This document shows, piece after piece, positions 31,471 through 63,431 of a stretch of DNA of 64,000 bases. Source of the stretch: an uncultured virus (IMG/VR IMGVR_UViG_3300032084_002349) (taxonomy: Duplodnaviria; Heunggongvirae; Uroviricota; Caudoviricetes). A program made the position numbers and the translations under genes. The notes under the pieces were generated by a model that worked only from the letters and a program-made list of their open reading frames with translations, searched no databases and was not told the origin of the DNA. The first letter of the stretch is position 1; every line of letters starts with the position of its first letter. The DNA lies in the IMG/VR virus record IMGVR_UViG_3300032084_002349, positions 1 through 64,000 of that record, one strand, 5' to 3'.

Positions 31471-31575
31471 CTATATATAAACTATAAAGAGGAAAAAAAT
31501 TCTTCTTGCAAATTAAAGTTTAGTATGTTAAAATTCCGATATACTAAAAAGAACATTAAACAAAGGATAAAAAAA

Positions 31576-31764
31576 ATGTTAAACACTTCAAAAAATTTCG
31601 AAATAGTTTACTCCTCTGATTGCTGTGGTGCTTCGGTTCACTCCGATGCCGATCTTTGCCCAACGTGCCTTGAGCATTGCGAAGTTATCGAAGATAGAAT
31701 CGATTATGATGATTCTGAAGCGGTACACTTTCAGGCTGGTCTCGATTTTTACGGGGCCGCATAA
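31576..31764 (+). CDS. Small Zn-finger-like early protein
   Basis: SDCCG...CPTCLEHC; RBS AAGGA before the ATG at 31576. Confidence 0.65.
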   Translation: MLNTSKNFEIVYSSDCCGASVHSDADLCPTCLEHCEVIEDRIDYDDSEAVHFQAGLDFYGAA

Positions 31765-31891
31765 AGCGGATTGCATAGACGGAAAAATTTTGGTACACTT
31801 TGAAAAAATATTAAAAGGTGCTATATGTTTAGTGAGCAAGAAAAATTAGAAATCACTATTGACGGTCTGCGAAATGGTGATATATTTATGA

Positions 31892-32128
31892 ATGAAGACG
31901 GAATACCAGTCGATGAATACGGCGACCCTATATTTGAGGATGATGCAAAAAATGAATGAATACAAATCAACATCTTTATATGAGTACCTTTACAAAGTAC
32001 TTGACAAATTTGACACGCCTAAATTACAATGCTATTTGGTGGCTTGTCAAGAATGTCGACCAGAAGATTACGAGGGAATTAGAGTAGCACAGAATATACT
32101 TTACTGTAGGAATTTTTATAATGAGTAG
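31892..32128 (+). CDS. Hypothetical early protein
   Basis: 78 aa ORF. Confidence 0.5.
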   Translation: MKTEYQSMNTATLYLRMMQKMNEYKSTSLYEYLYKVLDKFDTPKLQCYLVACQECRPEDYEGIRVAQNILYCRNFYNE

Positions 32129-32444
32129 TACAGAAAAATTAATGAAAAAGTATCAAATCTTATCAGACGCTTGGGACGAATGTGAAAATATTTGGCAGGG
32201 AATTGCTATCCCTTGTCAGAAGTCTGCTGCTGATGGAGGTACTATTGATGGTGAAAAGGTAGTCAAGTTTAGTCGTAAACATTTCAGAAAACGACATACA
32301 AAGGCAAACCCTCGCGTAGTTGGTGGTGTGGATCATATGTCTAAACCTATAGGTAAACCGGGAAGTGCTGAACGTGTCGAGGCATTAAAGAGTCAGTATG
32401 AATTTTTACAGGATCGTGAGGAATCACCCTTTATAGAAGAATAA
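32121..32444 (+). CDS. Hypothetical early protein
   Basis: 107 aa; GKPGSAERVEAL. Confidence 0.55.
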   Translation: MSSTEKLMKKYQILSDAWDECENIWQGIAIPCQKSAADGGTIDGEKVVKFSRKHFRKRHTKANPRVVGGVDHMSKPIGKPGSAERVEALKSQYEFLQDREESPFIEE

Positions 32445-32817
32445 ATATGGTAGATTATTAGATTTTTGGCACAAAGAGTGCCGCCGGGTTTGGTTAAAAA
32501 AATAATAAATAAATAAATAAAATTTCTGTTAAGTTTCTACTGTATGTTGTCGATATATAAAGTATAGGAAAGAATAACCCACGGAGAAAAACAATGTTGA
32601 CAATCTACACTATATTTGGAATCATGGTAGGGTTCGAAGGGTATGATAATGGTAAGGTATATTTTGGGGTGTATACCCCTAATTGTGAGTACGGATATGT
32701 TATGACTGCTGATGAAATTTATCTTGATACAATCTACGAAAAAAAATAAAGATTGTACTTGACAATAAATATAGTATGTATATACTTGACATATAACACT
32801 TACCACGGAGAACTGAT

Positions 32818-32976
32818 ATGTTTAACATCGATATGCAACTTTTAATTGCTGCCCTGGAATCGGAAGGTTGTGTTGAGCCTTGTGACGAGAACAACTCACA
32901 CCCTCTTGATTGGTGTGACGTAACTGGTGTGGACTTGTTTGAAGAAATATATTGGACACCCGAAGAGGCTTATTAA
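32818..32976 (+). CDS. Small hypothetical protein (52 aa)
   Basis: Hand-translated MFNIDMQLL...; GGAGA RBS and upstream promoter. Confidence 0.5.
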   Translation: MFNIDMQLLIAALESEGCVEPCDENNSHPLDWCDVTGVDLFEEIYWTPEEAY

Positions 32977-33018
32977 AATCACGTAACGAGCCGGGCCGCG
33001 TTACGATAAAAAACTTAC

Positions 33019-33065
33019 AGCAAACGATGTGCCAAACAAAAAAAATTTTTGGCATGATATTTGCA
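33019..33065. promoter_or_regulatory. Back-to-back pair of sigma54-type motifs
   Basis: Minus TGGCAC-ATCGT-TTGCT (33019-33034); plus TGGCAT-GATAT-TTGCA (33050-33065). Confidence 0.6.
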
Positions 33066-33101
33066 CACAGAAAAATAATAAAAATATTTCTAAATTAATG
33101 C

Positions 33102-33130
33102 TTGACAAATTCCGATATAGTATATATACT
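33102..33130 (+). promoter_or_regulatory. Sigma70 promoter, one of about 20 similar early promoters
   Basis: TTGACA-17-TATACT. Confidence 0.8.
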
Positions 33131-33167
33131 TAGGATATAACAAGTAACAGATTAGAAAGAAAAGAAA

Positions 33168-33332
33168 ATGAAAACATTTGATAAAAAACAAGTTGAAGAA
33201 TTATTCCAAGTAACTACAATGTATATCACAGATTGCTGTGGTGAGTATGTTTCAGACAACTGCTCAGACATCTGCCCAGCGTGTGGAGAGCATACAGAAA
33301 TTATCACAGAAGAATACGAGGTTAGTCGATGA
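33168..33332 (+). CDS. Small Zn-finger-like protein, paralog of 31576-31764
   Basis: Hand-translated TDCCG...CPACGEHTEII. Confidence 0.65.
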   Translation: MKTFDKKQVEELFQVTTMYITDCCGEYVSDNCSDICPACGEHTEIITEEYEVSR

Positions 33333-34144: not shown

Positions 34145-34180
34145 TTGACAACTAAAGTTGTACCATGTATAATGTCGATA
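34145..34180 (+). promoter_or_regulatory. Overlapping sigma70 and sigma28-like promoters
   Basis: TTGACA-17-TATAAT interleaved with TAAAG-18-CGATA. Confidence 0.7.
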
Positions 34181-34285
34181 TAACAATAAGGAGTTAAAGA
34201 TGAAAAAAGGATTTGACGCTGATGGAATGTGTGTTATACTTTTCTTAGTGGTTGCTGTTTCAATGATTTTACTTGAGAGGTTCTC

Positions 34286-34549
34286 ATGAGTTACAACGGA
34301 TATAAAAACTATGAAACGTGGAATGTTTGCTTGTGGATTTCGAATGATGAAGGGCTCTACAATCTCAGCATGTCTTGTGCTAATTATGATGAGTTTGTTG
34401 GTACTATGCGGGAATTGGATTCACTGGAAACTCCTGACCATGTAGCATGGAACGATAGCAACTTAGATATAGACGAGATAGACGCCGCATGTTTTGCTGA
34501 AGATGTAGAAGACGACGAGGTAGAAGAAGATGATGCAGCCGTGGCTTGA
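34286..34549 (+). CDS. Hypothetical phage protein
   Basis: MSYNGYKNYETWNVCLWISNDEGLY, an N-terminus I recall from other phages. Confidence 0.65.
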   Translation: MSYNGYKNYETWNVCLWISNDEGLYNLSMSCANYDEFVGTMRELDSLETPDHVAWNDSNLDIDEIDAACFAEDVEDDEVEEDDAAVA

Positions 34550-34838
34550 CTTGGTTCCATTCATTCGGCAATACGGTCCTATCGTTTCGATGGGGTACGT
34601 ATTGTTGTTTGCTTATATGTTTACTAAAATGGTTTTTAAAATAAAATAACATAATTAGGCCCGCCGGATTTTGTTAGAAAATTCAATATAAAAATATCAC
34701 CCTTCGTCTCAGCTAAGCCTTCGGCGTCACTTGTCATAGCACGACAGCCAGCGAATTCCAAAAAAAGTAAAGATTATGCTTGACAACGCCGATAATAACT
34801 GTATACTTGGAATATCACTAACCCATTGGAGACTTGAT

Positions 34839-35055
34839 TATGACACCTGCTGAAAACATTTATCGTTCAGATGAAGACGTTGTTGATGGTCTTGACACCC
34901 ACGACATGATGGAGGATGATCAGTACGACATCTATGATAGGGATGATGACGGACAGCCTACCCTACAGGAAGAATACCACGACTTATACAGTGGTGACGA
35001 TTATATTGGGGATATGTATATGAACACTATTGACTATCCAGAGGATTGGGGTTAA
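34839..35055 (+). CDS. Small acidic hypothetical protein
   Basis: Asp-rich ORF after a promoter and GGAG RBS; start position approximate. Confidence 0.5.
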
Positions 35056-35237
35056 ACTACTACTATGAAATACTACTTTGATGAGTTTGCAACGGAAGAT
35101 ATTCAGATGTGGGTTCGTTGGGCAGGAGATGAGATTCCCAAAGCAAAGTTGAGAGGAGACTTGGACGATGTAAACGATTGGGAAAGTATTGTTCGATCAG
35201 GTGCTAAGGAATTACTAAAAAGATATAGGGATGAAAA

Positions 35238-35465
35238 ATGAATAACGCTATGGATCCAAATTTTCGGTATTACGACTGCAAAAATATTGTTGACGAAATT
35301 ACTGGAGAGGAGCAAGATAATTTGACGATAATGGTAGCAGTACCTAAAATTGATCTAAGTACACCAGAGGATCGACATGAAAATTTAGTTGCAATTTCAG
35401 GTATTGTAGAGCAACAGTATCGTAGGGGTGTTGAAAGTTTTACTTTTGAGGAGTACACAGGATGA
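35238..35465 (+). CDS. Hypothetical protein
   Basis: 75 aa ORF. Confidence 0.5.
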   Translation: MNNAMDPNFRYYDCKNIVDEITGEEQDNLTIMVAVPKIDLSTPEDRHENLVAISGIVEQQYRRGVESFTFEEYTG

Positions 35466-35720
35466 TAATAAACATGATTCAACTTGACCCTGCTAGTTTG
35501 ACGATAGGATATGTATGCGGCACGTTGTTGTGCTGGTATCTCAGAGATATGTTAGACGCTAAGGAGAGCGAATATGAACGAGAAGCAAAGGAAAGCGATA
35601 AAGATAATGATAGTAGCGATGGTTTTGGGAGTTATGTCGATGCTTATCGTGTCGCTACAGGAAGGAAAAGGTGAAATTGCTCAGTTCAATGTAACCACTG
35701 ATAATCAGTAGAACAAAAAC

Positions 35721-35774
35721 AAACCGCCTGTAAGACCTATCCTGATATTGTTTCATGGGGCGAGGCGGTTTTTT
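35721..35774 (+). terminator. Terminator-like hairpin
   Basis: AAACCGCCT...AGGCGGTTT plus U-run. Confidence 0.55.
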
Positions 35775-35867
35775 CTACCAAACCCGGCCGGGCTGATTAT
35801 CTAAAGTTTTTAGCTTGACAAGCCGATAATATTATGGTAGGATGGTAGTACACGAAAGGACAACACT

Positions 35868-36461
35868 ATGAAAACTGTAAGCAACTTACTCTCAGCTTAT
35901 TTAACTAATAGCCCTAATAGCTGTCATGAATTACTCAAACAGTGCCACAATATCGGAGCCAGCTTAAATGATTCTGGTCACAGATTTATGAAGGCTAAAC
36001 TGATTGATAAAAAATATTCAAAAGTCTTTCCGTATCTGGAATATGTAGATGAGGTCGGATATGATTGGACTTTTTGTAAACAGCGAGTATCTGGTAAATC
36101 TCAGCAAAAAATGTTTCAGAAACGTACTGGTAAAACCAATGCTATAACGATTGCTAACAAATTAGGTAAAAACTACACTATGGAAAAAATGTTTGATTAT
36201 ATCATACTCACCCAAACTTCTGCACCATATTCGATTGCTGTAGGTAGTTATGAAAATATTTATCAGTATTTTGAGCATAGCGGCGATAAGATTACAGCAT
36301 CTATTCCACATGAAAAGTTAGATTTTATTGTTAATCCATCAGAGGGTATTGACTTTCCAGAAGAGGCAACATATGATTATGGTAGATTAATGGATACAAT
36401 TTTAGATAGGATGCTAGAACGTAATTTAATGCAGGATGATCAGGTTGTGCTATCTATTTAG
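35868..36461 (+). CDS. Hypothetical protein (weak PD-(D/E)xK-like pattern)
   Basis: 197 aa; GYD...SGK pattern, own promoter and RBS. Confidence 0.5.
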   Translation: MKTVSNLLSAYLTNSPNSCHELLKQCHNIGASLNDSGHRFMKAKLIDKKYSKVFPYLEYVDEVGYDWTFCKQRVSGKSQQKMFQKRTGKTNAITIANKLGKNYTMEKMFDYIILTQTSAPYSIAVGSYENIYQYFEHSGDKITASIPHEKLDFIVNPSEGIDFPEEATYDYGRLMDTILDRMLERNLMQDDQVVLSI

Positions 36462-36476
36462 AAAAAGGAAAGTAAA

Positions 36477-36860
36477 ATGATAAATTTAGTATTGTCTTTA
36501 TGTATGACTTTCGGGCCTTATACTGAAGATATAAAAGATCTATGTGTGGATAGTTATAGTGATGTTATAATGGTTTATGATCTGTATGATCTACATAGAG
36601 AAAATATGGAGCGTTATCTACCAGCATTTGCAAAAGATGAGACTATTGTATTTTATTGGTATATAAAAGACTATTGTTTAATCACGCATGTGGGCGATGA
36701 TGATTTAGCAAAGAGTCTCACAGAAATAGATGATAGCAATAATATATGGTCTTTGAAATACAAGTACGATTTATTAACAGCAGGATGGTTAAAATATATG
36801 ACTGCTTATAATCCACACGAACCATTTGATGTTACGAGACCATCACCAATTGATCCATAA
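36477..36860 (+). CDS. Hypothetical protein
   Basis: 127 aa with a hydrophobic N-terminus. Confidence 0.5.
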   Translation: MINLVLSLCMTFGPYTEDIKDLCVDSYSDVIMVYDLYDLHRENMERYLPAFAKDETIVFYWYIKDYCLITHVGDDDLAKSLTEIDDSNNIWSLKYKYDLLTAGWLKYMTAYNPHEPFDVTRPSPIDP

Positions 36861-36871
36861 AATCATCAAAC

Positions 36872-36903
36872 CAGCCCGCACGCGATATGCCAAAAATTAT
36901 TTT
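36872..36903. repeat. 32-bp exact repeat, copy 1 (contains a minus-strand sigma54-like motif)
   Basis: CAGCCCGCACGCGATATGCCAAAAATTATTTT, identical at 37817-37848. Confidence 0.85.
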
Positions 36904-36974
36904 CTTTTTTTTGTATTGACAACTAAAGTTGAGCCTGTATAATTGACGATATAACAAGTAAGGAGAAAATACTT

Positions 36975-37277
36975 ATGACACACGCAGAAGCAACACAATT
37001 AGTTTTGGGCAAGAATAACAGAATGCAACGCAAGGTGGGAAACAATACTACAGCAAGAATTTTACCGAGTGGTAGCGTAGCGATTCAACATTTCAGTACA
37101 GATATTGTAGTGATTCATGATGATGATTCTGCTACACTGAGGCATGGTGGATGGAAAAGTCCAACCACAAAAAAACGAATCAACAAATATAGTCCAGTGT
37201 CCGTATTCCAGAAAAATTGGGAATGGTTCACTAGTCACGGAACACCTTTTCAGGAAGGTATGAGAGTTTATGCTTGA
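36975..37277 (+). CDS. Hypothetical phage protein
   Basis: GWKSPTTKKRIN motif; strong RBS. Confidence 0.65.
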   Translation: MTHAEATQLVLGKNNRMQRKVGNNTTARILPSGSVAIQHFSTDIVVIHDDDSATLRHGGWKSPTTKKRINKYSPVSVFQKNWEWFTSHGTPFQEGMRVYA

Positions 37278-37337
37278 CATGGTGTTGAGCATATGGTAAA
37301 ATGGTTTTAGGTTTTTTCACACTTTGGAGGAAAAAAA

Positions 37338-37721
37338 ATGGATAATTTGATTTTGATGGCAAGTGTCATTGGTGGAATCGCTGTAGCACTTGTTTTGTTC
37401 GGAGTTTACTCTGTTTACGGTGGTCGTCAGGCTAGTCTCTGCGATGCTAAGGTCGGTGAAGTTTATAACTTTGAATACATGCAGCCACTGCATGGTGATC
37501 CTAAGCGAGTATTGGCTAAGGTTGTCGAAGAGCCTCATAAGTTTTCTAACAGTGCTATCGAGAAGATGAATCGATCTTCTACTTATCGTAGGAACGATCC
37601 AGACTTCAAGCGTACTCATCACATTGTAACATGTGAAACTCATGATGGTGCTATTAGACAGTTCTACTGTGAGCGTGTAAAGAATTGCCGGAAGCCATTG
37701 TTTGGCTGGGCAGTAGCATAA
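37338..37721 (+). CDS. Hypothetical membrane-anchored protein
   Basis: N-terminal TM helix, promoter and RBS. Confidence 0.6.
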   Translation: MDNLILMASVIGGIAVALVLFGVYSVYGGRQASLCDAKVGEVYNFEYMQPLHGDPKRVLAKVVEEPHKFSNSAIEKMNRSSTYRRNDPDFKRTHHIVTCETHDGAIRQFYCERVKNCRKPLFGWAVA

Positions 37722-37816
37722 CGACTCTCTTCGTGGTGTGTTCCGGTACCTGCCCTAAGTTGTTGCTCTGCAATGATTTAGGAGCAGGCCGGAATCAACA
37801 CAAAAATATTAAATTT

Positions 37817-37848
37817 CAGCCCGCACGCGATATGCCAAAAATTATTTT
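37817..37848. repeat. 32-bp exact repeat, copy 2
   Basis: Identical to 36872-36903. Confidence 0.85.
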
Positions 37849-37924
37849 TATTTTTTCTATAGTTTTTAGTTGACACCAGACGATACTATGATATACTTGA
37901 GAGATAACCACAGGAGACAACGAC

Positions 37925-38701: not shown

Positions 38702-38925
38702 GTAAGTATTATATTTCGACCGGAACACTACAATTAATTTATTCAACAAGTCAACAACCCTATGACGCCTGTAGAACAGTTATACACGAAATGAATGAAC
38801 ATGATGTATTAGACGAATATATGTATATTGACCAGCGTGGAATGAGAGATTATACAAACGCCGACCAACTCACTTTCGTTGTTCCCACCAAAGATATTCT
38901 AAGAAAAGAAGGGTATCCGGTCTGA
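38698..38925 (+). CDS. Hypothetical protein
   Basis: 75 aa, coupled ORF. Confidence 0.55.
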   Translation: MSKYYISTGTLQLIYSTSQQPYDACRTVIHEMNEHDVLDEYMYIDQRGMRDYTNADQLTFVVPTKDILRKEGYPV

Positions 38926-39031
38926 TGTAAAAAAAACACAAAACCAGGCCGCACGGACTGTGCCATAATTATTTTTGTATTATTCTAAAGAATACTATTG
39001 ACAATGACGATAAATATAGTATACTTACAAT

Positions 39032-39346: not shown

Positions 39347-39455
39347 CTTGTTTTACCTAATCCTATAGGATTGGTGGCGATGGTGATAGTCAGCGAAAAA
39401 CTAAAGTATTGACAATAGTCTGTCGATAATGTATACTAGGGGAAAGGAGATAATT

Positions 39456-39770
39456 ATGTATTTTCAGTATGACACCAATAGTTCTGTAATGCCAATACCC
39501 TACAAAACTATAGAAACAAGAGTTAATAGTGATAACAAGAAGCAAAAAATTATAGAGATGCTAGATCATTTTTCTAGTATGGGTGTGGAAGAAATTACGT
39601 TGTCAGATATGTCTAAATTTATGGGTACTACCATTAGGCAGGCTAGGTGGTTTGAAGATAAAGATAGGAATAAACTATATCCTGACAATGCTTATACTAG
39701 TCGTGGTGCTCCGTTTCCATCTACTTGGAATGTCCAAATATGGAAAGATTGGCTAAAGGTATTGACATAA
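39456..39770 (+). CDS. Hypothetical protein (possible HTH)
   Basis: AGGAGA RBS before MYFQYD. Confidence 0.55.
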   Translation: MYFQYDTNSSVMPIPYKTIETRVNSDNKKQKIIEMLDHFSSMGVEEITLSDMSKFMGTTIRQARWFEDKDRNKLYPDNAYTSRGAPFPSTWNVQIWKDWLKVLT

Positions 39771-39808
39771 TAATGTCGATATGATATACTAGAGGAAAGG
39801 AGACAATT

Positions 39809-41021: not shown

Positions 41022-41212
41022 ATGTAAAATCAGCCCGGCCGGATTTTGCGTATAATTTCAATATCAGAGTTATTGCTTAATATAATCACATTCAAGCCAT
41101 TATTTTCTCAAGTTTATGCTATTGACAAGACGATACTATATGATAGAATGATAGCATAAGTGACAAGCACCGTGCAAGTTACTAAAATTGGTTTTATCTT
41201 GGAGAATTTATT

Positions 41213-41636: not shown

Positions 41637-42073
41637 TTAACTTATTTGGAGAAAATTTTGGATAAAAAAGAACAAATAACAACAATTTTAGACTACCTGA
41701 ACCAGAGGCTAAGTGTGATGAATGAGGCCGAAACAAATAAGGTAAAGAAAATCCTTGAGGATGACGATATTACTCTTAAGGAGGTGGTGGAATGGTATAT
41801 CGACTATGTTTGGTCTCACTCTTAATTTGTTGTACAGGATGTGTAACTACTAGCAAATGTTCACTTACCTGTAATAAAACTATAGACTTGACGGGTCAGC
41901 CCGATAATGGTAGAATGAATGTTGGAGTTAGGGTAGAGTTCTTTAGAGATTGGACAAGATGATGAACGAGTTGTGTGAACAAATGCAGGAAGACATTAGG
42001 GCTATTCTTGATGGTCGTAGTGATGCTTCTACTATTGATATGATTTGTGATTTACTTGTGGAGAAACTTACTA

Positions 42074-43502: not shown

Positions 43503-43628
43503 ATAAAATCAGGCCGGGCTGATTATGTTATTTTTTTCTCAATTATGCTAAAGATTAACTGTTGACAGTGACGATATATATGATATACTTAGAGCATACA
43601 GGACATTACTCTTACGAAAGGAACTAAA

Positions 43629-44711: not shown

Positions 44712-44817
44712 TGTAAGTCTATATCTGACAAGGACTTACGGAGATTTCCTAATGGACAAAGGCGTGATGATCCGATATAATGGTAGAGTGTAAGTTGTTT
44801 GCTGGTAAGGACTTACG
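44712..44817. repeat. Two 29-bp imperfect palindromes (11-7-11)
   Basis: TGTAAGTCTAT-N7-AAGGACTTACG and TGTAAGTTGTT-N7-AAGGACTTACG. Confidence 0.7.
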
Positions 44818-46527: not shown

Positions 46528-47234
46528 AAAATATTGATTATAATAGAGTTTTAATAACATTTTCCCTACTACTAAAGAATATATAACTATTAGGAATTAT
46601 CATCATGTTTCTTGAATTTTTTCATATTTTAGACATCTTTTATGTCCGTTTTTAGGGTTTATCTTTCCTGTATTAATAATAATGAACTGGTTTTTATCGT
46701 TTTTTAGACCAATTTTGTCATAAATATAACCTTAATTTACTTATTAAATATAACTGACTTGTAAAATAAGGGTTTTCTAAGGGAAAAAAGAGCATAAAAA
46801 AACTAAAGTCCAGACGCTCTAAATTCCGATATTGACTCTATGGTTACTTATGGTATAATGTCTATTAGTACTAGTAGTAGTTTATGTAATAGGTATAGGA
46901 AAAAATGTATAAAAGCATACTTCTCACAGATAGCGAAATCAAACTATTACGCAAGGTTTTACACACTCATTTACATACAAATCCAATAGATATAAAGCAT
47001 CAAGAAATAAAGAATCTGCATATAATTGATAGAACCTTATTGGGTACGATTCCCACCAAAAATAAGAATCAAATGACCTAAATGGGTTAATCACCCACAA
47101 ATCAAAAAGAAATGAAATAGAAATCAAATGGAAATAGTCGGAAGAGTATTACATATCGTGGCTATTGTGGCTACAGCGTGGTTTTTTATAGCATCTTACA
47201 GAGAATGGAAAGTAGATAAAAGGAGAAAGAAAGT

Positions 47235-48114: not shown

Positions 48115-48282
48115 GTGACTAATCAATTAAGGCTAAGGATTGAAAAATTCATTATCGACTATGAGAATCAATTAACCCATATAGATAATATCGAACCCAA
48201 AATTATGGGTGTTTTACTAGAAAATGCTGTAGTTTTACTAGGTGATACCATAGATGAAAATTCTTGTAAAGATATTGATTGA
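48115..48282 (+). CDS. Small protein, paralog of 47776-47928
   Basis: LRLRIEKFIIDYENQLTHIDN; GTG start. Confidence 0.55.
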   Translation: MTNQLRLRIEKFIIDYENQLTHIDNIEPKIMGVLLENAVVLLGDTIDENSCKDID

Positions 48283-48340
48283 CAACAGACGATAAGTATG
48301 ATATACTAATAAAAACCGACCTTTTCAGAAAGAAACAACA

Positions 48341-54195: not shown

Positions 54196-54215
54196 TAAAA
54201 ATATAAGGATGTAAT

Positions 54216-54404: not shown

Positions 54405-54498
54405 AGAATTATTATTATCGAGAAAAGAGTGTTGTGGTAGTGGATGCAGGAATTGTCCATATATACCTAAACATAAGAAAGGTAGTATAAAAACATAG
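54385..54498 (+). CDS. Tiny Cys-rich protein (DUF5522-like)
   Basis: Hand-translated RKECCGSGCRNCPY. Confidence 0.6.
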   Translation: MTNALTRELLLSRKECCGSGCRNCPYIPKHKKGSIKT

Positions 54499-54538
54499 TA
54501 CGGTGTATTTCAATATACCAATTTAGGAGGTATCACAC

Positions 54539-56911
54539 ATGAGGTCGTCCTGTATTATCTTTGTGTTATTATCTGGATCATTATTTGCCCAAGACAACGG
54601 TATAAAGTTTTTTGAACAAAATATTAAGCCAGTTTTGACCACTCAATGTTATTCTTGTCACTCTTCCAATTCTAAAGATGTAAAGGGTGGATTGTCTGTA
54701 GATACTAGGCAAGGCATATTAAACGGTGGTGATTCTGGCCCATCAGTTGTTCCCGGTAAGATAGATGAGAGTTTGTTATTAGATTATATTGAGTCTGGTG
54801 ATATGCCTCCAGATAATCCTCTCAGCGAAGAAGTTGTCAATAATTTTAGACAATGGATTAAAATGGGTATGCCTGACCCAAGATATAAGCATGAGAATAG
54901 GGCAGTAGAATTAAAGCAGGCTAGAAATTTCTGGGCATTTAAAAAGGTTGCGAGACCTCCTGTAGCCAAATACGATGATGGTACAGAGATAGATGCTATA
55001 TTAAATTTAGAAATAGAAAAGAACAAACTAAAACCAGTAGAGGCAGCAGACGATTATACTATTGTTCGCAGACTTTATTTTGACCTGATTGGTTTGCCAC
55101 CAAGTATTGAACAAATAAAAGGCTATACTGATGATACTTCAGAAGATAAGTATGAAAAGTTAGTTGATAGTTTATTGCAAGATGAGGGGTTTGGAGAGAA
55201 ATGGGGACGACACTGGCTTGATGTGGCAAGGTACGCAGAATCATCTGGGCAAGATAGGAATTTAATTAGTCCTTATGCTTGGAGATATAGAGATTATGTT
55301 ATAGATAGTTTTAATCAAGACAAACCATACGATCAATTTATCAAAGAACAAATCGCTGGTGATCTACTACCACATAAAAGTTATGAAGAATATAACAATA
55401 ACAGGATCGCTACAGGATTTTTAACTATAGGTACTAAAAATATACAGGCACAAACCAAACAGTTTGAGGCAGATCGTAATGACGATCAGATAGATGTAAT
55501 CACTAGGGGTTTTCTAGGTATGACTTTAAGTTGTGCTAGATGCCATGATCATAAGTTTGATCCATTTTCTCAGCAAGACTATTATGGTGTTGCTGGGGTG
55601 TTTAATAATACAGAAAATATGGATGGTTTGTATCGGGGAAATAATAATACTGGATATCTTGGAAACTATGATTATCTTGTGACAAAAGAAACAGAAGATT
55701 TATATAAGAAGAAAAAAATAGAGGAATGGTTTTTATTATGTGATATTAAAAATTTACAGACACAAATAGATTCTATTAAAACATGGAATAAAAGAGCAAC
55801 AGAACAACAATTAGATAAAGAATTAGGAAAAAGAGAAAAACAACTAACAGAAAAGATGAATAAACTAAAAGAGATTACTGGCAAGGAAGAATTTCCTACG
55901 CTAGAATATCTTGAGCCGGTTATGTCTGTTAAAGATAAAGAAAAAATGAGCGAGGTTAAGTTAGCGATCAGAGGAGAGGTAAATAATCTGGGTGATGAAG
56001 TACCTAGAAGATTACCAGAAATATTTAGCGATAGACCTAATCTTAATTTTGATAATACCAGTGGACGATATGAGTTTGCGGAATGGATAACGCATAAAAC
56101 TAATCCATTAACTTATAGGGTTCATGTTAATAGGGTATGGAGACATTTGTTTGGTAAAGGTATACTGGATAGTTTTGATAATTTTGGTATACTTGGTGGA
56201 GAGCCTACTAATCTTAAACTTATGAACTATTTATCCACTAAATTTATTACTGGTAGACTATCAAATAAAAGACTTATAAAAACTATTGTAATGAGCAATG
56301 CTTATAGGCGTAGTAGTAAGTTTGATAAAAATAATTATGAGATTGATCCTGACAATATTTATTTCTGGAGAATGAATGAGAAAAGATTAGAGGCTGAACA
56401 AATTAGGGATTCATTATTATTTGTATCAGGTAAACTAGACGGGTCGCATAAAAATGTAAGTGATTTTCAAACAGGTATAAAAAATCCTAGTAAAGAATTA
56501 AGAAAGTATATTGGAGAAACAAGAGCAAGATCAATTTATATTCCATCGTTAAGAGATAATAAGATTGAGGTGCTGGATATATTTGATAGACCAGATAATA
56601 GTTTGCTTAATGCAGAGAGAAGCGTTACGACAGTTTCTACACAAGCGTTATTTCTAATGAATAATCCTAAGATTATAGCATTGGCACAAGAAGAAGCCAA
56701 AGTATTGATTGAACATAATAAAAAGATGGGTAAAACCATGCCCAGTATATTATATCGCAACAACATAAATAAAATATTTCTAAAGTTTTTAGGTCGTCCA
56801 CCGACAGAGCAAGAGAATAAAAAATCTATAGAGTTTATTAAACAAGATAGCGATCTTGCCAAACTTATTCAAATAATAATCTGTACAGGAGAATTTAGAA
56901 ATATTAAATGA
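54539..56911 (+). CDS. Planctomycete cytochrome c + DUF1549 (PSCyt2) + DUF1553 (PSD1) protein
   Basis: Signal peptide, heme motifs CYSCH and CARCHDHKFDP, RRLYFDLIGLPP, WGRHWLDVARYAES, NPLTYRVHVNRVW. Confidence 0.92.
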   Translation: MRSSCIIFVLLSGSLFAQDNGIKFFEQNIKPVLTTQCYSCHSSNSKDVKGGLSVDTRQGILNGGDSGPSVVPGKIDESLLLDYIESGDMPPDNPLSEEVVNNFRQWIKMGMPDPRYKHENRAVELKQARNFWAFKKVARPPVAKYDDGTEIDAILNLEIEKNKLKPVEAADDYTIVRRLYFDLIGLPPSIEQIKGYTDDTSEDKYEKLVDSLLQDEGFGEKWGRHWLDVARYAESSGQDRNLISPYAWRYRDYVIDSFNQDKPYDQFIKEQIAGDLLPHKSYEEYNNNRIATGFLTIGTKNIQAQTKQFEADRNDDQIDVITRGFLGMTLSCARCHDHKFDPFSQQDYYGVAGVFNNTENMDGLYRGNNNTGYLGNYDYLVTKETEDLYKKKKIEEWFLLCDIKNLQTQIDSIKTWNKRATEQQLDKELGKREKQLTEKMNKLKEITGKEEFPTLEYLEPVMSVKDKEKMSEVKLAIRGEVNNLGDEVPRRLPEIFSDRPNLNFDNTSGRYEFAEWITHKTNPLTYRVHVNRVWRHLFGKGILDSFDNFGILGGEPTNLKLMNYLSTKFITGRLSNKRLIKTIVMSNAYRRSSKFDKNNYEIDPDNIYFWRMNEKRLEAEQIRDSLLFVSGKLDGSHKNVSDFQTGIKNPSKELRKYIGETRARSIYIPSLRDNKIEVLDIFDRPDNSLLNAERSVTTVSTQALFLMNNPKIIALAQEEAKVLIEHNKKMGKTMPSILYRNNINKIFLKFLGRPPTEQENKKSIEFIKQDSDLAKLIQIIICTGEFRNIK

Positions 56912-57531
56912 AGTATATTAAAACAAAATTTATGATAACTTCATCACAAAAAAATAAATATTTGTGGTTCAGGGTTGCGAAAGCAGCAACAACAACGATT
57001 CTTTCCCACTTATGCCAACATACTAAAATAAGTTTTTGTAATAGAATTAATATATATCAGAACGATGAAAATGTTTGGCAGGAATATCTGCTATGGAAAA
57101 ACCGAATGTATTCTGATAATTATTTTAAATTTGCTTTTGTTAGAAACCCTTGGGATAGATTAGTTAGTTGTTATTTTAATAAAATGGAGGATGGTTATGA
57201 GAACTTCAATAAGAATAACTTTAAAACATTTGATAAGTTTATACATTATATAAGAAATGTAAAGACTAAGACATGCGATAGACATTATAGGTTACAAACA
57301 GAATTGTATCCTATTGATCAAATAGATTTTGTAGGTCGTTTTGAAAATTTTGCAAATGATCTTGGTTTTGTGTGTGATGCAATAGGTATGCCCAAACGTA
57401 AGAAATTTAAAACAATGCACAAATCCAAACACAGACCATATCAAGAATATTATAATGAGGAAACTCAACAAATAGTTAAAGACAAATATGAACAAGATAT
57501 AGAATTATTAAACTATAAATTCGGAGAGTAA
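56908..57531 (+). CDS. Sulfotransferase family 2 protein
   Basis: RVAKAATTTI; FVRNPWDRLVSCY. Confidence 0.88.
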   Translation: MKYIKTKFMITSSQKNKYLWFRVAKAATTTILSHLCQHTKISFCNRINIYQNDENVWQEYLLWKNRMYSDNYFKFAFVRNPWDRLVSCYFNKMEDGYENFNKNNFKTFDKFIHYIRNVKTKTCDRHYRLQTELYPIDQIDFVGRFENFANDLGFVCDAIGMPKRKKFKTMHKSKHRPYQEYYNEETQQIVKDKYEQDIELLNYKFGE

Positions 57532-57533
57532 AT

Positions 57534-58829
57534 ATGTTAAATAGAAGAAGTTTATTACAAGCCAGTAGTTTTGGTTTCGGTATGTTAGCATTAAAAGGAT
57601 TAATGGCAGAAGAGGCTATGAAAAGTAATAAGAGAGTTATATTCATGTATATGAATGGTGGTATGACTCATACTGATACTTTTGATCATAAGCCTTTAAT
57701 GGTAGAAAAAGCAGGTATAGATGATCCTGTAAGTAAAGGTAGAAAGATTATGAAACCGGGAGTGCCTTTAACTCCAGCAGGAGATAGCGGCATAGAAATT
57801 AGCGAGAACTTCCCACACTTGCGTAAACATGCAGATGATTTATGTCTGTTGAATGGTATGAAGAGTAAAACAGGTAATCATAATCAAGCAAGAAGTTTAT
57901 TACATACCGGGAATTTTCAATTCAGTAGACCTAGTATGGGTAGTTGGTTATTGTATGGATTAGGCACAGAGAATAAAGAGTTGCCGGGGTTTATAACTAT
58001 AGATGCTAACATTGGGCCTGATAATTATGGTAGTTCATTCTTACCAGCAGTATATCAAGGCACTGCTATTAATGCTGGTAGTAAAAGTGCTATACCTAAT
58101 CTTGTAAATACATCTACAACTAAAGACAGACAAAGAAAAGATTTAGATTTATTAAGAGACTTTAACCAGATGCACCTAAAAGATGGTGCAGAAAATGGTA
58201 GACTAGAAGGATTGATTGAGAGTTATGAGTTGGCTTTTAGGATGCAGACAAGTGTTCCTAATACTATTGATATATCAAAAGAATCGCAACAAACCTTACA
58301 GAAGTATGGTATCAATGATAAAGCCACTGCTAAATTTGGCAAACAGTGTTTATTAGCAAAGAAATTTAGTGAAGCAGGAGTTAGATTCGTAGAGATTGGT
58401 CATGGTGGATGGGATATGCACCAGAACATTAATGATAATTTAAAAAAGAATACTTCTGCTATTGATAAACCTATCGCTGCTTTGATCCAAGACTTAAAAG
58501 ATTCTGGATTATTTGAAGATACAATTATATTATTTGGAAGTGAGTTTGGCAGAACTCCCGGTATAAAAGAAGGAGCAACAGGTAGAGATCATAATAATAG
58601 TGGATTTTCTATGTGGATGGCAGGTGGTGGTGTTAAAGGTGGTATGAGATATGGTTCTACTGATGATTTTGGGCATAAAGCAGTGGATGGTATGGACATG
58701 CATGATTTACATGCTACTATATTACATCTAATGGGTATTGACCATAGTAAATTAACATATAGATATAGTGGTAGAGACTTTAGACTAACTGATGTATTTG
58801 GTAACATTCAACACGATATTATAGCATAA
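57534..58829 (+). CDS. DUF1501 family protein (Tat-exported)
   Basis: LNRRSLL twin-Arg signal, GGMTHTDTFD, GWDMH, SEFGRTP, GRDH, DLHATILHLMG. Confidence 0.92.
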   Translation: MLNRRSLLQASSFGFGMLALKGLMAEEAMKSNKRVIFMYMNGGMTHTDTFDHKPLMVEKAGIDDPVSKGRKIMKPGVPLTPAGDSGIEISENFPHLRKHADDLCLLNGMKSKTGNHNQARSLLHTGNFQFSRPSMGSWLLYGLGTENKELPGFITIDANIGPDNYGSSFLPAVYQGTAINAGSKSAIPNLVNTSTTKDRQRKDLDLLRDFNQMHLKDGAENGRLEGLIESYELAFRMQTSVPNTIDISKESQQTLQKYGINDKATAKFGKQCLLAKKFSEAGVRFVEIGHGGWDMHQNINDNLKKNTSAIDKPIAALIQDLKDSGLFEDTIILFGSEFGRTPGIKEGATGRDHNNSGFSMWMAGGGVKGGMRYGSTDDFGHKAVDGMDMHDLHATILHLMGIDHSKLTYRYSGRDFRLTDVFGNIQHDIIA

Positions 58830-59215
58830 TGGCAAACAAAAAACCAAGAAAAAAGATTCCTAAAGAATTAGCAATAATTCAAGCAGATAATTGTACTGGT
58901 TGTGAGGCTTGTTTAGAAGTATGTCCTGTTGATTGTATATTCCAGATAAAACAGGGAGTAACTCAATGGTGTGAGATTGATTTGTCTACTTGTATAGGTT
59001 GCGAACAATGTATTCATGTTCCCGGCGGTAAAGGTAAGAAATATGATCTTAAAGTCTGTCCTTGGGATGCTATCGAGATGGTTCCTACCGAAGAAATAGC
59101 ACAGGCACAGGCTGATATGGGTGGGCCAAAAGAATATATTGATGCAAATTGGGATAGGCTAGTAGATATTGCACAAAATATAGCAGATTTAAAAGGTAAA
59201 AAAAATGGTGTATAA
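58829..59215 (+). CDS. 4Fe-4S dicluster ferredoxin
   Basis: CTGCEACLEVCP and CIGCEQC...CPW. Confidence 0.9.
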   Translation: MANKKPRKKIPKELAIIQADNCTGCEACLEVCPVDCIFQIKQGVTQWCEIDLSTCIGCEQCIHVPGGKGKKYDLKVCPWDAIEMVPTEEIAQAQADMGGPKEYIDANWDRLVDIAQNIADLKGKKNGV

Positions 59216-59238
59216 CCATTTCTAATAAAGGAGATATT

Positions 59239-59685
59239 ATGAGAACTAACAAATTTCTAGAGGCGTTAAAAACAGTAGCAGATAAACCTGGGCCAAAAGA
59301 CCCACGAAGAACTCCTGCTCCTAAAAAAGATCAGAAAAAAGGTAGTAAGAAAAATAAACCTGATAGTGCCAAAGACGACAAAAGCAAGATTACGTTTAGT
59401 AAAAAGACTATAGATAAATTAAAGAATAAAGTTAGTGAACATAATGAAAAAATTAAAAAGAAGGGTAAAGGGAGTAAGGCTACATTAGGTATGTTAAAAG
59501 CAGTATACAGAAGAGGCGCTGGAGCGTATTCAACTTCTCACGCCCCTAAAATGAGTAGAGATGGTTGGGCTATGGCAAGAGTAAATGCTTTTCTTACAAT
59601 ACTCAGAACGGGAAGGCCATCAAATTCTGGCTATAAGCAAGACAATGACTTACTACCAAAAGGACATCCACGAAGCACCAAATAA
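59239..59685 (+). CDS. Basic viral protein (DUF5824-like)
   Basis: LKAVYRRGAGAY..SH...WAMARVNAFL. Confidence 0.6.
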   Translation: MRTNKFLEALKTVADKPGPKDPRRTPAPKKDQKKGSKKNKPDSAKDDKSKITFSKKTIDKLKNKVSEHNEKIKKKGKGSKATLGMLKAVYRRGAGAYSTSHAPKMSRDGWAMARVNAFLTILRTGRPSNSGYKQDNDLLPKGHPRSTK

Positions 59686-59692
59686 AACTTCT

Positions 59693-60379
59693 GTGGATAA
59701 AATATTTTTAATAAACCATCCTAAACTTATTGATAGGTTATATTTTCAAAAAAAACAATTTGAGAAATTTAAATTAAAATATCAAATTATTAATTCTATA
59801 AAATGTAATCATTTTACAAACTTTTATAATACGAATATCAAATCTTTATTTTTAACTCATTTAGAGATTCTTAAAAGTATTACAGATATAGATGAACTGT
59901 GCTTAATTTTAGAAGACGATGCCGAAATTTATGATATTGACGAAGTAAATAAGTATATAGATTATATACTGAAAAACAATTTGTCTCTGAATTGGGATAT
60001 GATATATTTTGATAAGCCTGTTTATTTTAATAAAGAAAGCCAAAATGCAAAATTAATCTCCGAAACTAAATTAGTTGATAATTATATTTATAAACCGGAG
60101 TGGCAATTACAAACACATGCATATATTATGAATCCAAAAATTATTAAAGATGTGGTTCAAACGCTAATAGACCATATAAATAATATGGAGAGTGGTGCGA
60201 TCAAAAAAGATCAAGGTCTTAAAAGACTAAGCCATATAGACCAAGTATATAAATATTACATTCATCCGAGACTAAATATATATACGCCTATAACCGACTT
60301 AATTGGTCAATGTGAAAATTTTGAGTCAACTTTAAATTATAAAAAAAATTCAAGTTGCCAGTTGACAAAAGACGAATAG
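59693..60379 (+). CDS. Glycosyltransferase family 25-like protein
   Basis: DKIFLIN, LTH, LILEDDA, THAYI; GTG start at 59693 preferred. Confidence 0.75.
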   Translation: MDKIFLINHPKLIDRLYFQKKQFEKFKLKYQIINSIKCNHFTNFYNTNIKSLFLTHLEILKSITDIDELCLILEDDAEIYDIDEVNKYIDYILKNNLSLNWDMIYFDKPVYFNKESQNAKLISETKLVDNYIYKPEWQLQTHAYIMNPKIIKDVVQTLIDHINNMESGAIKKDQGLKRLSHIDQVYKYYIHPRLNIYTPITDLIGQCENFESTLNYKKNSSCQLTKDE

Positions 60380-61324: not shown

Positions 61325-61389
61325 AACAATTAATTTTGTGAATCACAATACGTTTTGTGATTATTTTACTTTTAATTTCAGGAGGAAAT

Positions 61390-61710
61390 ATGAAGATTTT
61401 TATTGCAGTATTATTGGCTGGTTTAACTTTGCCTGCTTTTGCCGGGGAAGCACCAGTAGTATCTGAACCTCAAACTACAGTATCGGCAGATTGTGATTGC
61501 AGTCCTTGTGAATGTAGCACATGCAACTGTAGGGTGCGTAGAGGCTTGTTTGGCAGGAGACTTTTTATTCGTTCTACAGATTGTGCTTGCAATAAAACTG
61601 GCAGCACATACTCAAGAACCAGAACAGTTACAGATGGGTGCTGTAATGTTCTTCGTTCAAGAACTTTTAGTAGAACTATTTGCAACGGCAACACTTGTAA
61701 TTGCAAGTAA
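61390..61710 (+). CDS. Secreted Cys-rich protein
   Basis: Signal peptide (AFA site), GGAGG RBS, many Cys. Confidence 0.65.
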   Translation: MKIFIAVLLAGLTLPAFAGEAPVVSEPQTTVSADCDCSPCECSTCNCRVRRGLFGRRLFIRSTDCACNKTGSTYSRTRTVTDGCCNVLRSRTFSRTICNGNTCNCK

Positions 61711-61766
61711 TTTTATGGGGGGTGAGATAACATCAAACCCCCTTTCATTTCATGGAGGAAATAATT

Positions 61767-62111
61767 ATGCAAAAAATAGTATTATGTTTAATTGCTGTAA
61801 CTTTATTAACAAATGTTTGTGAGGCTAGAAGAAATAGAAAGAAAACTAACACAACTTATAAGTATACATACTCTACGACAGTAGATAATACCTCCGCACA
61901 AGGAGTTGCTAACACAATGGCATCGAGAAATTGTGTTGCTCATTTTGGTGGACATAGTAATAATTACGAGGGTTGTGGTAGCGGTTGGAGTCAAAACGAA
62001 GCATATAACAACTGTTGCTACAGTAATAGCGGAATGTTTGTTATTGATGTCGGTTACGCTCAAGGTAAATCTGGTATGTGGTATTGTTGCAAAAGATACT
62101 CAAGGCATTGA
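61767..62111 (+). CDS. Secreted Cys-containing protein (weakly CAP-like)
   Basis: Signal peptide; AHFGG...YEGCG...VGYAQG...WYCC. Confidence 0.6.
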   Translation: MQKIVLCLIAVTLLTNVCEARRNRKKTNTTYKYTYSTTVDNTSAQGVANTMASRNCVAHFGGHSNNYEGCGSGWSQNEAYNNCCYSNSGMFVIDVGYAQGKSGMWYCCKRYSRH

Positions 62112-62180
62112 CAAACAATATTGTTTAGGCTATACTATAGTTGTGGTTTATTGTTTTAACAAACGGAAAGAATGAGGATT

Positions 62181-62351
62181 ATGAGTAATAAAAATTATTT
62201 TCTTGTAGCAGCATTTGCTAGTTTTGTTCTTAGCGTTTCTCTTTGGTTTCTTGGAGACCAAGCAGTTGCAAAAGAGCAAGGAATTTTTGTAGGACTATGG
62301 GTTCCTAGCATTTTGACTTTAGGAACATATTTTGGTAAATGTAATAAGTAA
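62181..62351 (+). CDS. Small two-TM membrane protein
   Basis: Hand-translated ...GIFVGLWVPSIL...; promoter at 62108. Confidence 0.6.
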   Translation: MSNKNYFLVAAFASFVLSVSLWFLGDQAVAKEQGIFVGLWVPSILTLGTYFGKCNK

Positions 62352-62360
62352 GGAATAATT

Positions 62361-62546
62361 ATGGATAACTTTACCTTATTTGTATGTGGTATTGTAATTA
62401 CGCTCATCTCTGGTATGGGTGTGATTACTTCAGAAGTTTTTCTAGGATATTATAAATATTTTGAAAAAGAAAAATTAAGGCAGTTACAAAAAGCAAGACT
62501 ACAATTAGAAAAAGAAAAAGAAGTTTTGCAAAATGCTAAAGTTTAA
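62361..62546 (+). CDS. Small membrane protein
   Basis: N-terminal TM segment, RBS. Confidence 0.6.
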   Translation: MDNFTLFVCGIVITLISGMGVITSEVFLGYYKYFEKEKLRQLQKARLQLEKEKEVLQNAKV

Positions 62547-62633
62547 ATATGAGAGGGGAGATAATATCAAACCTCTACATATTTTCAGTAAATTTTTACC
62601 TAATTTAAAGGCGGTAGAAATGATAATAGAACA

Positions 62634-62897
62634 ATGTACAGGAATATTGATGAAGATGAACGTCTATTGATAATGGCGAGAAGATATTGGGATGAAGAGG
62701 ATCAATTAACAGAAAAGCAATTATATTGGGTGTTAAAGAATGAAGGATACTCAAAGACTGAAATTGACAATGCGATCAGTGATTATTGGTCTATTCATAT
62801 ACAGTCTAATATTCTTCTCCATTATTGGATTGCACCAATTATTTTAACAGTGATGATGGTCGTTTTAGTTTTATATGTTCAGAGTTTATTAAAATGA
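62634..62897 (+). CDS. Hypothetical membrane protein
   Basis: C-terminal TM segment. Confidence 0.55.
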   Translation: MYRNIDEDERLLIMARRYWDEEDQLTEKQLYWVLKNEGYSKTEIDNAISDYWSIHIQSNILLHYWIAPIILTVMMVVLVLYVQSLLK

Positions 62898-63106
62898 AAA
62901 GAAAACATTGTAAATTGGACGATACATGCAAGATGAGTTTTGAGTTAGAAGAACTCGATGGTAAAACATTTATGATCATAAAAGATACAAAATGTACCCA
63001 CGAACAAACTGCATATAAAGGATTTGCTAATGTTAATTCGTATGTAGATAAATATAGACTTCTTAAACTTGCAGACTTCATATATGATTATTGTAATAAC
63101 AAATGA
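62894..63106 (+). CDS. Hypothetical protein
   Basis: Likely start MKRKHC, coupled to the upstream stop. Confidence 0.5.
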   Translation: MKRKHCKLDDTCKMSFELEELDGKTFMIIKDTKCTHEQTAYKGFANVNSYVDKYRLLKLADFIYDYCNNK

Positions 63107-63431
63107 AAAGCATAATTTATTTTTTATTATCTGTACCTAGATGTTTATTTTTATTATTATTTAGAAAGACTAAGTAATGTGGAAGATTTGGTGCAAAGCA
63201 TTGGGTGAAAAATCTGGTACGACCGATAGACAAAGCGATGGTATTGCTTTTATTAGGTCTGCGCTTGTATTACAGGCTATCCTTACCAATCTATTTATAG
63301 TTGTTAACATTCTAAAAAGTTGGTATCAATAAATTCGTAATGATCTAAAGATTGTTCTTGACAATGACGATATTTATGTTATACTAAGATTAGAGAGATT
63401 GAAATTTTATATACTTTTTAAAGAGGGATTT

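Follow-up and report, generated by a model that had tools for sequence, protein, structure and literature searches.

As a rule, the early promoters of phages are adapted to the housekeeping sigma factor, and the question raised by the uncultured caudoviricete IMGVR_UViG_3300032084_002349 is why so many of its early promoters share their space with a second, sigma28/FliA-like element, and which polymerase would read it. The window analyzed here was a stretch of 64,000 nucleotides from a contig of 117,168 bp. A planctomycete host had been proposed in the initial annotation, and it was borne out by marker genes of the phage (DUF1549/DUF1553/planctomycete cytochrome c, DUF1501, and DUF1559), the host being thus assigned from genes and not from culture.

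Between positions 31,001 and 64,000, the plus strand carried 13 copies of TAAAG-N17/18-CGATA, whereas 300 dinucleotide shuffles gave a mean of 0.15 and a maximum of 2. On the whole contig, exact copies numbered 16 on the plus strand and 0 on the minus strand, while pairs of the same boxes at any other spacer from 8 to 30 numbered 0-3 each, including one match per strand at the canonical enteric N16; consequently, the claimed 17-18 bp spacing was enriched over both shuffled sequence and other spacers. Moreover, each of the sites listed in the initial annotation, 12 exact and 4 variant, was recovered on the plus strand at the position given there. In the Escherichia coli FliA/sigma28 class 3 consensus, TAAAGTTT-n11-GCCGATAA, the TAAAG and CGATA cores are separated by 16 bp (PMC2859248, as given in its Table 1), compared with 17-18 bp in the phage and in Planctomycetia, so that the spacer is indeed longer than in the sigma28 consensus, by 1-2 bp rather than by the proposed 1 bp or so. 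Among the 19 strict sites in 31-90 kb, both cores were of FliA type (TAAAG in 16 and TCAAG in 3 at -35, CGATA at -10). A G stood two bases 5' of CGATA in 16 of them, with the GC dinucleotide in a minority only; this -10 form, GA/GT/GC-CGATA, departs from the strict GCCGATAA and counts against a sigma28 reading. The motif is clade-wide, since all five complete relatives harbored 10-17 exact copies on one strand, against 0-1 for the controls.

The 20 sigma70 promoters initially annotated have the -35 box TTGACA in 18 cases (TTGACG at 41888 and TTGACT at 46832), with a 16-18 bp spacer, TAnnnT, sense direction, and a position 5' of gene starts. A strict TAAAG/TCAAG-CGATA pair accompanied 12 of the 20, with a spacer of 17 in five and 18 in seven and none at other spacers within 8-30; one-mismatch variants at two further promoters (33102 and 37870) raised this to 14/20, and the remaining six (32759, 37274, 41888, 42686, 60362, and 62108) lacked a sigma28-type motif (Table 1). 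The motif had also been described as sliding relative to TTGACA. Its offset does vary between copies, but it does not slide freely, since the TAAAG-to-TTGACA offset was 12-13 bp in 27 of 55 pairings (G000, G005, and G006 combined), and minor clusters lay at +6 to +8 (8), -8/-9 (6), +28 (2), and +35 (2).

Table 1. Promoter-like sites and related features of the window; offsets in bp run from the sigma28-type -35 core to the sigma70 -35 box.
Feature	Position	Strand	Details
Sigma28-type TAAAG-N18-CGATA	31514..31541	+	Weak sigma70-like partner TTGCAA..TAAAAT, offset -8, read by eye
Variant sigma28-type TTAAG-N17-CGATA	32529..32555	+	Without TTGAC partner
Interlocked pair TAAAT-N17-CGATA	33091..33130	+	Sigma70 -35 at 33102, offset +11
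Interlocked pair, sigma70-first register	34145..34180	+	TTGACA 34145; TAAAG-N18-CGATA 34153; offset -8
Interlocked pair TAAAG-N17-CGATA	34768..34807	+	TTGACA 34780, offset +12
Interlocked pair TAAAG-N17-CGATA	35802..35843	+	TTGACA 35815, offset +13
Interlocked pair, sigma70-first register	36916..36951	+	TTGACA 36916; TAAAG-N18-CGATA 36924; offset -8
Interlocked pair TATAG-N18-CGATA	37858..37897	+	TTGACA 37870, offset +12; 5' of GP88-family gene
Interlocked pair TAAAG-N17-CGATA	38986..39025	+	TTGACA 38998, offset +12
Interlocked pair TAAAG-N17-CGATA	39402..39437	+	TTGACA 39409, offset +7
Interlocked pair TAAAG-N18-CGATA	39754..39790	+	TTGACA 39762, offset +8
Interlocked pair TCAAG-N18-CGATA (common host variant)	41108..41149	+	TTGACA 41122, offset +14
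Exact TAAAG-N17-CGATA, absent from the initial annotation	41743..41769	+	No sigma70 partner; within small ORF 41646-41825; possibly fortuitous, or else a start for sigma28 only
Interlocked pair TAAAG-N18-CGATA	43549..43589	+	TTGACA 43562, offset +13; 5' of DUF932 gene
Variant TAATG-N18-CGATA	44750..44777	+	No TTGAC partner; TAATG also at host flagellin genes
Tandem pair TAAAG-N18-CGATA, then sigma70 -35	46804..46859	+	TTGACT 46832, offset +28
Interlocked pair TAAAG-N18-CGATA	48267..48307	+	TTGACA 48279, offset +12
Interlocked pair TAAAG-N17-CGATA	63346..63385	+	TTGACA 63358, offset +12
DUF1549/DUF1553/planctomycete cytochrome c gene (host marker)	54539..56911	+	
DUF1501 gene (host marker)	57534..58829	+	Best matches within class Planctomycetia, 58-59%
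Phage-encoded sigma factor	22104..22742	-	Region 2 and Cys-rich insert, divergent C-terminus; terminase/structural module
Sigma70-type promoter	29531..29559	-	Aimed into structural module holding the phage sigma gene
Candidate late promoter motif, GGGGTA form	11760..11765	-	5' of ORF 11190-11717
GGTGTA/AGTGTA forms	9067, 17283, 25632, 28808	-	
GGTGTA/AGTGTA forms	50312, 53581, 54502, 59207	+	

In the inferred host class, T(A/C)AAG-N17/18-CGAT(A/G) matches flagellin and fliA promoters. For flagellin, 58 starts were parsed from 70 Planctomycetia loci and scanned at spacers 10-25; exact TAAAG-CGATA pairs were at N17 (7) or N18 (3) in ten of ten cases, with none at other spacers in that range, and 25 sites were collected in all, about 33 of the 58 starts being without one. 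The comparison with planctomycete flagellin promoters that had been suggested thus returned the same boxes and the same longer spacer. Upstream of fliA, the motif was present in 16 of 24 Planctomycetia genomes without flagellin (spacer 18 in 15 and 17 in one, with no other spacer), whereas among flagellated genomes 2 of 11 fliA loci had it. Furthermore, a matrix trained on host sites only detected, at N17/18, 19 plus and 1 minus sites in this phage genome, where the other spacers from 12 to 23 gave 0-5 each, and in the phage relatives it detected 26 plus and 2 minus (G005) and 3 plus and 24 minus (G006). An orthologous secreted-protein gene kept its N17 motif in five genomes without flagellin, where the spacers had diverged. 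Host-genome counts are not independent, because these genomes are related, and the flagellin starts and flagellated fliA loci without the motif count against a sigma28 reading; nevertheless, the flagellin, fliA, and host-matrix evidence agrees with the original identification of the motif as the host sigma28 promoter type, longer spacer included.

Two further host tests spoke against it. In enteric bacteria flgM belongs to class 3, yet 0/26 flgM upstream regions carried the motif; the gene may lie inside an operon. Genome-wide, spacers 17/18 were not enriched in 20 genomes without flagellin (42/144, p 0.15), and spacer enrichment in 6 other host genomes was unconvincing. Of 29 Verrucomicrobiota loci used as a control, one had an exact pair, with spacer N16, and flagellins of other classes, taken at phylum level, gave N16 in four and N17 in three among 40 starts, which is not diagnostic. 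Stacking with sigma70 boxes in the host found no support at two sites of genome G247 (108030 and 5077281) with TTGACA inside the spacer, where no sigma70 -10 could be seen by eye.

The label "motility sigma", used in the initial annotation, proved too narrow: FliA (TIGR02479 over cut-off) was detected in 151/151 Planctomycetia genomes and 178/201 genomes of the phylum, compared with flagellin in 76/151 and FlgM in 122/151 of the sampled Planctomycetia, and the motif is used without flagellin. Plim_1142 (COG1191) of Planctopirus limnophila, the probable fliA, belongs to the essential-gene list, with an insertion index of 0.0013 versus 0.12-0.15 for Plim_1137-1140 (PMC10632474, supplement). FliA is probably essential in this, the one species screened, with polarity on the downstream essential bioA being possible; in one genome of the class, fliA stands directly before bioA, as in Plim_1142/1143. 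Against phage records, host FliA showed at most 40% identity.

We consider it likely, with a probability of about 0.8, that the early promoters are OR-gates of two host sigma factors, sigma70 and FliA/sigma28, a reading derived from sequence comparison. The motif would be read by the FliA/sigma28 RNA polymerase of class Planctomycetia, and is overlaid on consensus sigma70 promoters 5' of most early gene cassettes. Only one holoenzyme could occupy a site, and hence whichever sigma is free would start the same mRNA, with two predicted starts per site whose distance, about 8-13 bp, would vary with the register. Since FliA is class-wide, probably essential, and retained together with the anti-sigma FlgM in genomes that lack flagella, such gates would probably let the early genes be expressed whatever the state of the cell and capture extra polymerase. 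The takeover of swarmer as well as sessile cells suggested in the initial annotation would be a hypothetical case of this. A more ambitious proposal, which we put forward tentatively, is that FliA-FlgM is an essential cell-cycle switch of Planctomycetia and not a motility accessory, and that this abundant phage clade has rebuilt its entire early region as sigma70/sigma28 OR-gates with preferred registers 21 bp apart (-8, +13, +35), seizing mother and daughter cells; roughly 25 sites per genome would drain this essential sigma from the host, and the phage would read out a planctomycete developmental promoter code.

The same overlap could also serve interference, the FliA holoenzyme blocking the sigma70 promoter or being titrated, with lysis delayed in FliA-high cells, similar to CtrA lytic deferment, or an essential host sigma drained. 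Mutually exclusive occupancy of the overlapping boxes, the 20-26 or so sigma28-type sites per phage genome, the apparent essentiality of FliA, and the known restraint of phage genes by cell-cycle regulators of the host (PMC9437464) agree with it. Yet the two boxes are conserved together with the host spacing, point in the sense direction, and stand just 5' of ribosome-binding sites, as expected for productive starts; some sites (31514 and 32529) offer FliA no strong sigma70 promoter that it could block; and titration of FliA can be a by-product of an OR-gate and not an alternative to it. We regard interference as unlikely.

Still less likely is a middle-promoter role in which the motif is recognized by the phage sigma or some other protein of the phage, its sigma28 likeness being inherited or convergent. 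Every relative encodes a sigma and the motif is clade-wide; however, each of the five relatives had one region-2 sigma match per genome, none FliA-like, and a second, FliA-like phage sigma was discarded on this count. The phage sigma, whose single-sequence fold had a pLDDT of 56.7 and was set aside, lies in the late module, where the coding strand has 0 strict sigma28 sites and a different motif occurs. The latter, GGTGTA, stood 5' of an ORF start in 16/41 cases and would drive the late genes separately, probably read by the phage sigma as candidate reader. In the fuller record, the replication genes are served by sigma70-type promoters that lack the sigma28-type motif, unlike a middle class, and identical boxes and spacing occur at host flagellin and fliA. 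Least probable of all is a single strengthened sigma70 promoter (UP-like element plus spacer motif) spread between cassettes by recombination, with no second sigma. Half of the pairings share the +12/13 offset, AT-rich upstream DNA is frequent, and the joints between contigs of related RNA data coincide with promoters, a weak sign (public RNA comprised 8 runs with 5-11% of words, as assembled contigs only). Such a promoter would not account for the 17/18 bp kept whether the motif precedes or follows TTGACA, at offsets from -9 to +35, for box pairs without TTGAC, or for the match to host sites without sigma70 boxes.

Dual sigma70/sigma28 (class 2/3) promoters are known from enteric fliA, fliD, and flgM, and sigmaA/sigmaD promoters from Bacillus subtilis. 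As in the OR-gates proposed here, both sigmas serve one transcription unit; nevertheless, those promoters are few, belong to bacterial flagellar operons, and are not known to form systematic interlocks within 40 bp throughout the early region of a phage. FliA class 3 promoters share the TAAAG -35 and CGATA -10 cores, which in the inferred host class precede flagellin and fliA, but the TCAAG variant is common, and in the phage genome about 20 copies are interlocked with sigma70 boxes. The prophage flagellin fliC-P of the TldR system is likewise a phage gene under a host sigma28 promoter, although it is a single flagellin moron of Enterobacter lysogens outside an early block, with no sigma70 interlocking described in the accessible portion of the preprint (bioRxiv 10.1101/2023.11.30.569447). 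CtrA sites in pili- and flagellotropic alphaproteobacterial phages and Spo0A sites in phi29 also tie phage promoters to a regulator of host development or motility, but these regulators are transcription factors, for which a deferral of lysis has been proposed or shown (PMC9437464), whereas in the present phage the early promoters contain duplicates of the promoter that belongs to a sigma factor, and activation is predicted. Within the PVC group, chlamydial sigma28 is used without flagella; the Chlamydia pneumoniae hctB promoter, TNAAG-N15-GCC, extends one base beyond the gammaproteobacterial consensus, and tandem developmental promoters differ in use between two cell forms, in this case with few targets, on the host chromosome and without a phage (PMC3333780).

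Our literature search, with most subscription papers outside its scope, returned no report of this promoter architecture or of the clade, and a cultured relative was not found, the sole match being a Bacillus phage G capsid (21.8%). If true, clade-wide sigma28 doubling of early promoters would be a new way to secure takeover across host cell states, and T(A/C)AAG-N17/18-CGAT(A/G), as consensus of a class-wide sigma, would offer a testable handle on the control of the planctomycete budding life cycle. Moreover, the shifted spacing marks the host independently in the more than 599 viral contigs of the clade that lack an assignment. Outside the clade, five large phages had 0-5 motif copies, near the control level, and a sixth (G557) had 3 plus and 6 minus copies versus 2 and 3 in controls.

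The architecture of interlocked sigma70 and sigma28-like promoters is real, and all sites listed in the initial annotation are present in the sequence. The second motif, TAAAG-N17/18-CGATA, occurs in 13 copies on the + strand between 31 and 64 kb, against 0.15 on average and never more than 2 in shuffled sequences; on the whole contig (117,168 bp, of which the window covers the first 64 kb) there are 16 copies on the + strand and 0 on the - strand, with 0-3 for other spacers. A strict pair is found in 12 of the 20 sigma70 promoters, always with a spacer of 17 or 18, while two bear variant pairs and six none. The offset from TAAAG to TTGACA had been described as sliding; it does vary between copies, but it is clustered, with 27 of 55 pairings in three genomes at +12/13, eight at +6 to +8, six at -8/-9, two at +28 and two at +35. 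The groups at -8, +13 and +35 are spaced about 21 bp from each other, a register considered a lead only, because packing constraints and shared ancestry could also give it. Contig joints of related phages often lie at promoters, a weak hint at cassette shuffling between promoter units. A shared element of about 35 bp is present at two places, overlapping a reverse-facing sigma70-like site at each.

All five complete relatives carry 10-17 exact motif copies on a single strand (controls, 0-1). Among 19 further records, clade members including the early block presented 5-19 copies, mostly on one strand, and three clade fragments 0-3. In an IMG/VR pattern scan with free spacing (TAAAG..TTGACA..CGATA; 80 of 134 stretches analysed), the total spacer was 17 or 18 in 41 of the 86 matches listed, and among these listed matches a sigma70 -10 was present in 34/41 with that spacer versus 5/45 with others.

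A planctomycete host is indicated by genes of the DUF1549/DUF1553/planctomycete cytochrome c, DUF1501 and DUF1559 types. Among named cultured organisms, the closest relative of the first is encoded by Anatilimnocola (40%), and its near-identical matches under other labels most likely stem from misbinned phage contigs; the DUF1553 gene, with more than 50 relatives (69-92% identity), is probably spread across the clade. For DUF1501, the best matches among 201 Planctomycetia genomes (59% and 58%) belong to two genomes that are flagellated and carry the motif at flagellin, the class having been reached via Singulisphaera. Relatives of the capsid protein in IMG/VR number at least 599, one of them 100% identical in a 165,940-bp record; the protein's sole cultured match is Bacillus phage G (21.8% identity).

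The second motif very probably represents a host sigma28 promoter whose spacing is specific to the lineage. Its spacer had been estimated as about 1 bp longer than the sigma28 consensus; it is longer, by 1-2 bp, than the 16 bp separating TAAAG from CGATA in the E. coli consensus TAAAGTTT-n11-GCCGATAA (PMC2859248), and promoters of the inferred host class were therefore examined. From 70 of 76 flagellin-bearing genomes, 58 flagellin starts were parsed and 12 loci left out. The comparison with planctomycete flagellin promoters suggested by the initial annotation gave 10 exact pairs at these 58 starts, seven at N17, three at N18 and none at the remaining spacers from 10 to 25; TCAAG, TAATG and CGATG variants had identical spacing, and about 33 of the 58 starts had no such site. 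A matrix trained on 25 host sites only and then run on phage genomes detected 19 N17/18 sites on the + strand and one on the - strand of the studied phage (other spacers, 0-5 each), 26+/2- in the related phage G005 and 3+/24- in its relative G006. In Verrucomicrobiota, the alternative host group, 29 flagellin loci yielded one exact pair, at N16, and FliA over the cut-off was absent from two genomes.

Of 24 genomes lacking flagellin (drawn from 75, chosen mainly for long contigs), 16 also have the motif upstream of fliA, with spacers of 18 (15) and 17 (1) and no other; of 11 flagellated genomes, 2 do so, and in this group fliA is often downstream of flhG/flhF-type genes. The motif was found in 0/26 flgM upstream regions, and genome-wide, in 20 genomes without flagellin, spacers 17/18 were not enriched (42/144). 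One orthologous gene for a secreted protein has retained the motif across five genomes that lack flagellin. This unannotated signal-peptide-like gene family (loci L370, L380, L430, L438 and L439), with its conserved sigma28-type promoter, is a candidate member of a non-flagellar regulon; the two members tested had no Pfam match. In the planctomycete genome G236, spacer 16 accounted for 5 of 7 genome-wide matches, a hint that this lineage may use the canonical spacing.

The term motility sigma, applied earlier to FliA, is too narrow, since FliA exceeds the TIGR02479 cut-off in 151/151 class genomes, whereas in the same draw flagellin is present in only 76/151 and FlgM in 122/151; FliA and FlgM occur also in Planctomycetia genomes without flagellin. 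Regions 2 and 4 are nearly invariant across eight aligned FliA proteins. In a P. limnophila transposon screen, the Fig. S3 essential-gene set includes Plim_1142 (COG1191), with an insertion index of 0.0013 versus 0.12-0.15 in Plim_1137-1140 and 0.012 in bioA (Plim_1143), the next gene downstream (PMC10632474). In one of eight class genomes examined fliA immediately precedes bioA, which supports the identification of Plim_1142 as fliA, and the gene is probably essential in P. limnophila. A polar effect on bioA retains some plausibility as the source of this apparent essentiality, although fliA tolerates fewer insertions than bioA. FliA and FlgM in Planctomycetia merit study in their own right.

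Judging from their geometry, the interlocked boxes would admit one holoenzyme at a time, sigma70 or sigma28, either of which could start the same mRNA. In other FliA-FlgM systems, FliA activity is gated by FlgM. If FlgM gates FliA during the budding cycle, early genes would stay on in both states and dual promoters would capture more polymerase, possibly draining the host of FliA. The closest cases are a flagellin gene of a prophage controlled by a host FliA promoter (bioRxiv 2023.11.30.569447), CtrA- and Spo0A-wired phages (PMC9437464) and flagella-independent chlamydial sigma28 (PMC3333780). Within an incomplete literature coverage, neither a phage early region made up of interlocked sigma70/sigma28 promoters nor this phage clade was found described, and we regard the arrangement as a new form of the co-opting of host developmental regulators by phages.

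Sigma region 2 had a single match per genome in five relatives, and the phage sigma carries a Cys-rich insert and differs from FliA at its C-terminus. The structural module coding strand contains 0 strict sigma28 sites. GGTGTA was detected upstream of ORF starts in 16/41 cases in the studied phage, 15/43 in G005 and 13/41 in G006 (eight control hexamers in the same genomes, 1-13%), with one occurrence in the early block. The GGTGTA(T)-type motif precedes structural and other genes, is conserved in relatives and may serve the phage sigma as a late promoter. The simplest reading would be three promoter classes, namely sigma70, host sigma28 and phage-sigma late; in the fuller record, the promoters of replication genes are of the sigma70 type and lack the second motif.

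Features of the phage genome (window positions, or G000:C1 for the whole contig of the studied phage)
Feature	Position	Strand	Remarks
Structural module		-	Terminase, capsid, tape measure, sigma factor
Small early-type gene block	from ~31.4 kb	+	
GGTGTA(T)-type motif	9067, 11765, 17283, 25632, 28808	-	30-60 nt upstream of genes
GGTGTA(T)-type motif	50312, 53581, 54502, 59207	+	30-60 nt upstream of genes
~35-bp shared element	45440-45510; G000:C1:101225-101295		Each overlaps a reverse-facing sigma70-like site
Contig joints of related phages	34193>36973, 35771>41122, 44816>43559		Within 34193-44816; 88% likeness
DUF1553 + DUF1501 pair	54539-58829		Host-derived, intact
DUF1559 prepilin-type gene	G000:C1:84400-85407		Host-derived, intact
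Cysteine-rich repeat proteins	23146-23991; 25638-26582	-	Each follows a possible fibre gene
Glycosyl-, sulfo-, methyltransferase and sugar-nucleotide-like genes	50552-60379; G000:C1:72668-116119		Very large set
tmRNA	G000:C1:71618-71957		
tRNAs Arg(TCT), Ile(TAT), Lys(TTT)	inside window		
tRNA Leu(TAA)	G000:C1:83458		
Volactin-family (actin-like) gene	G000:C1:98605-99609		Pfam E 3.8e-67

The two cysteine-rich repeat proteins had no match in Pfam or PHROG. The transferase and sugar-nucleotide set was judged from translations, with two genes confirmed by family scans, and the gene before the Volactin-family gene bears the late-type motif.
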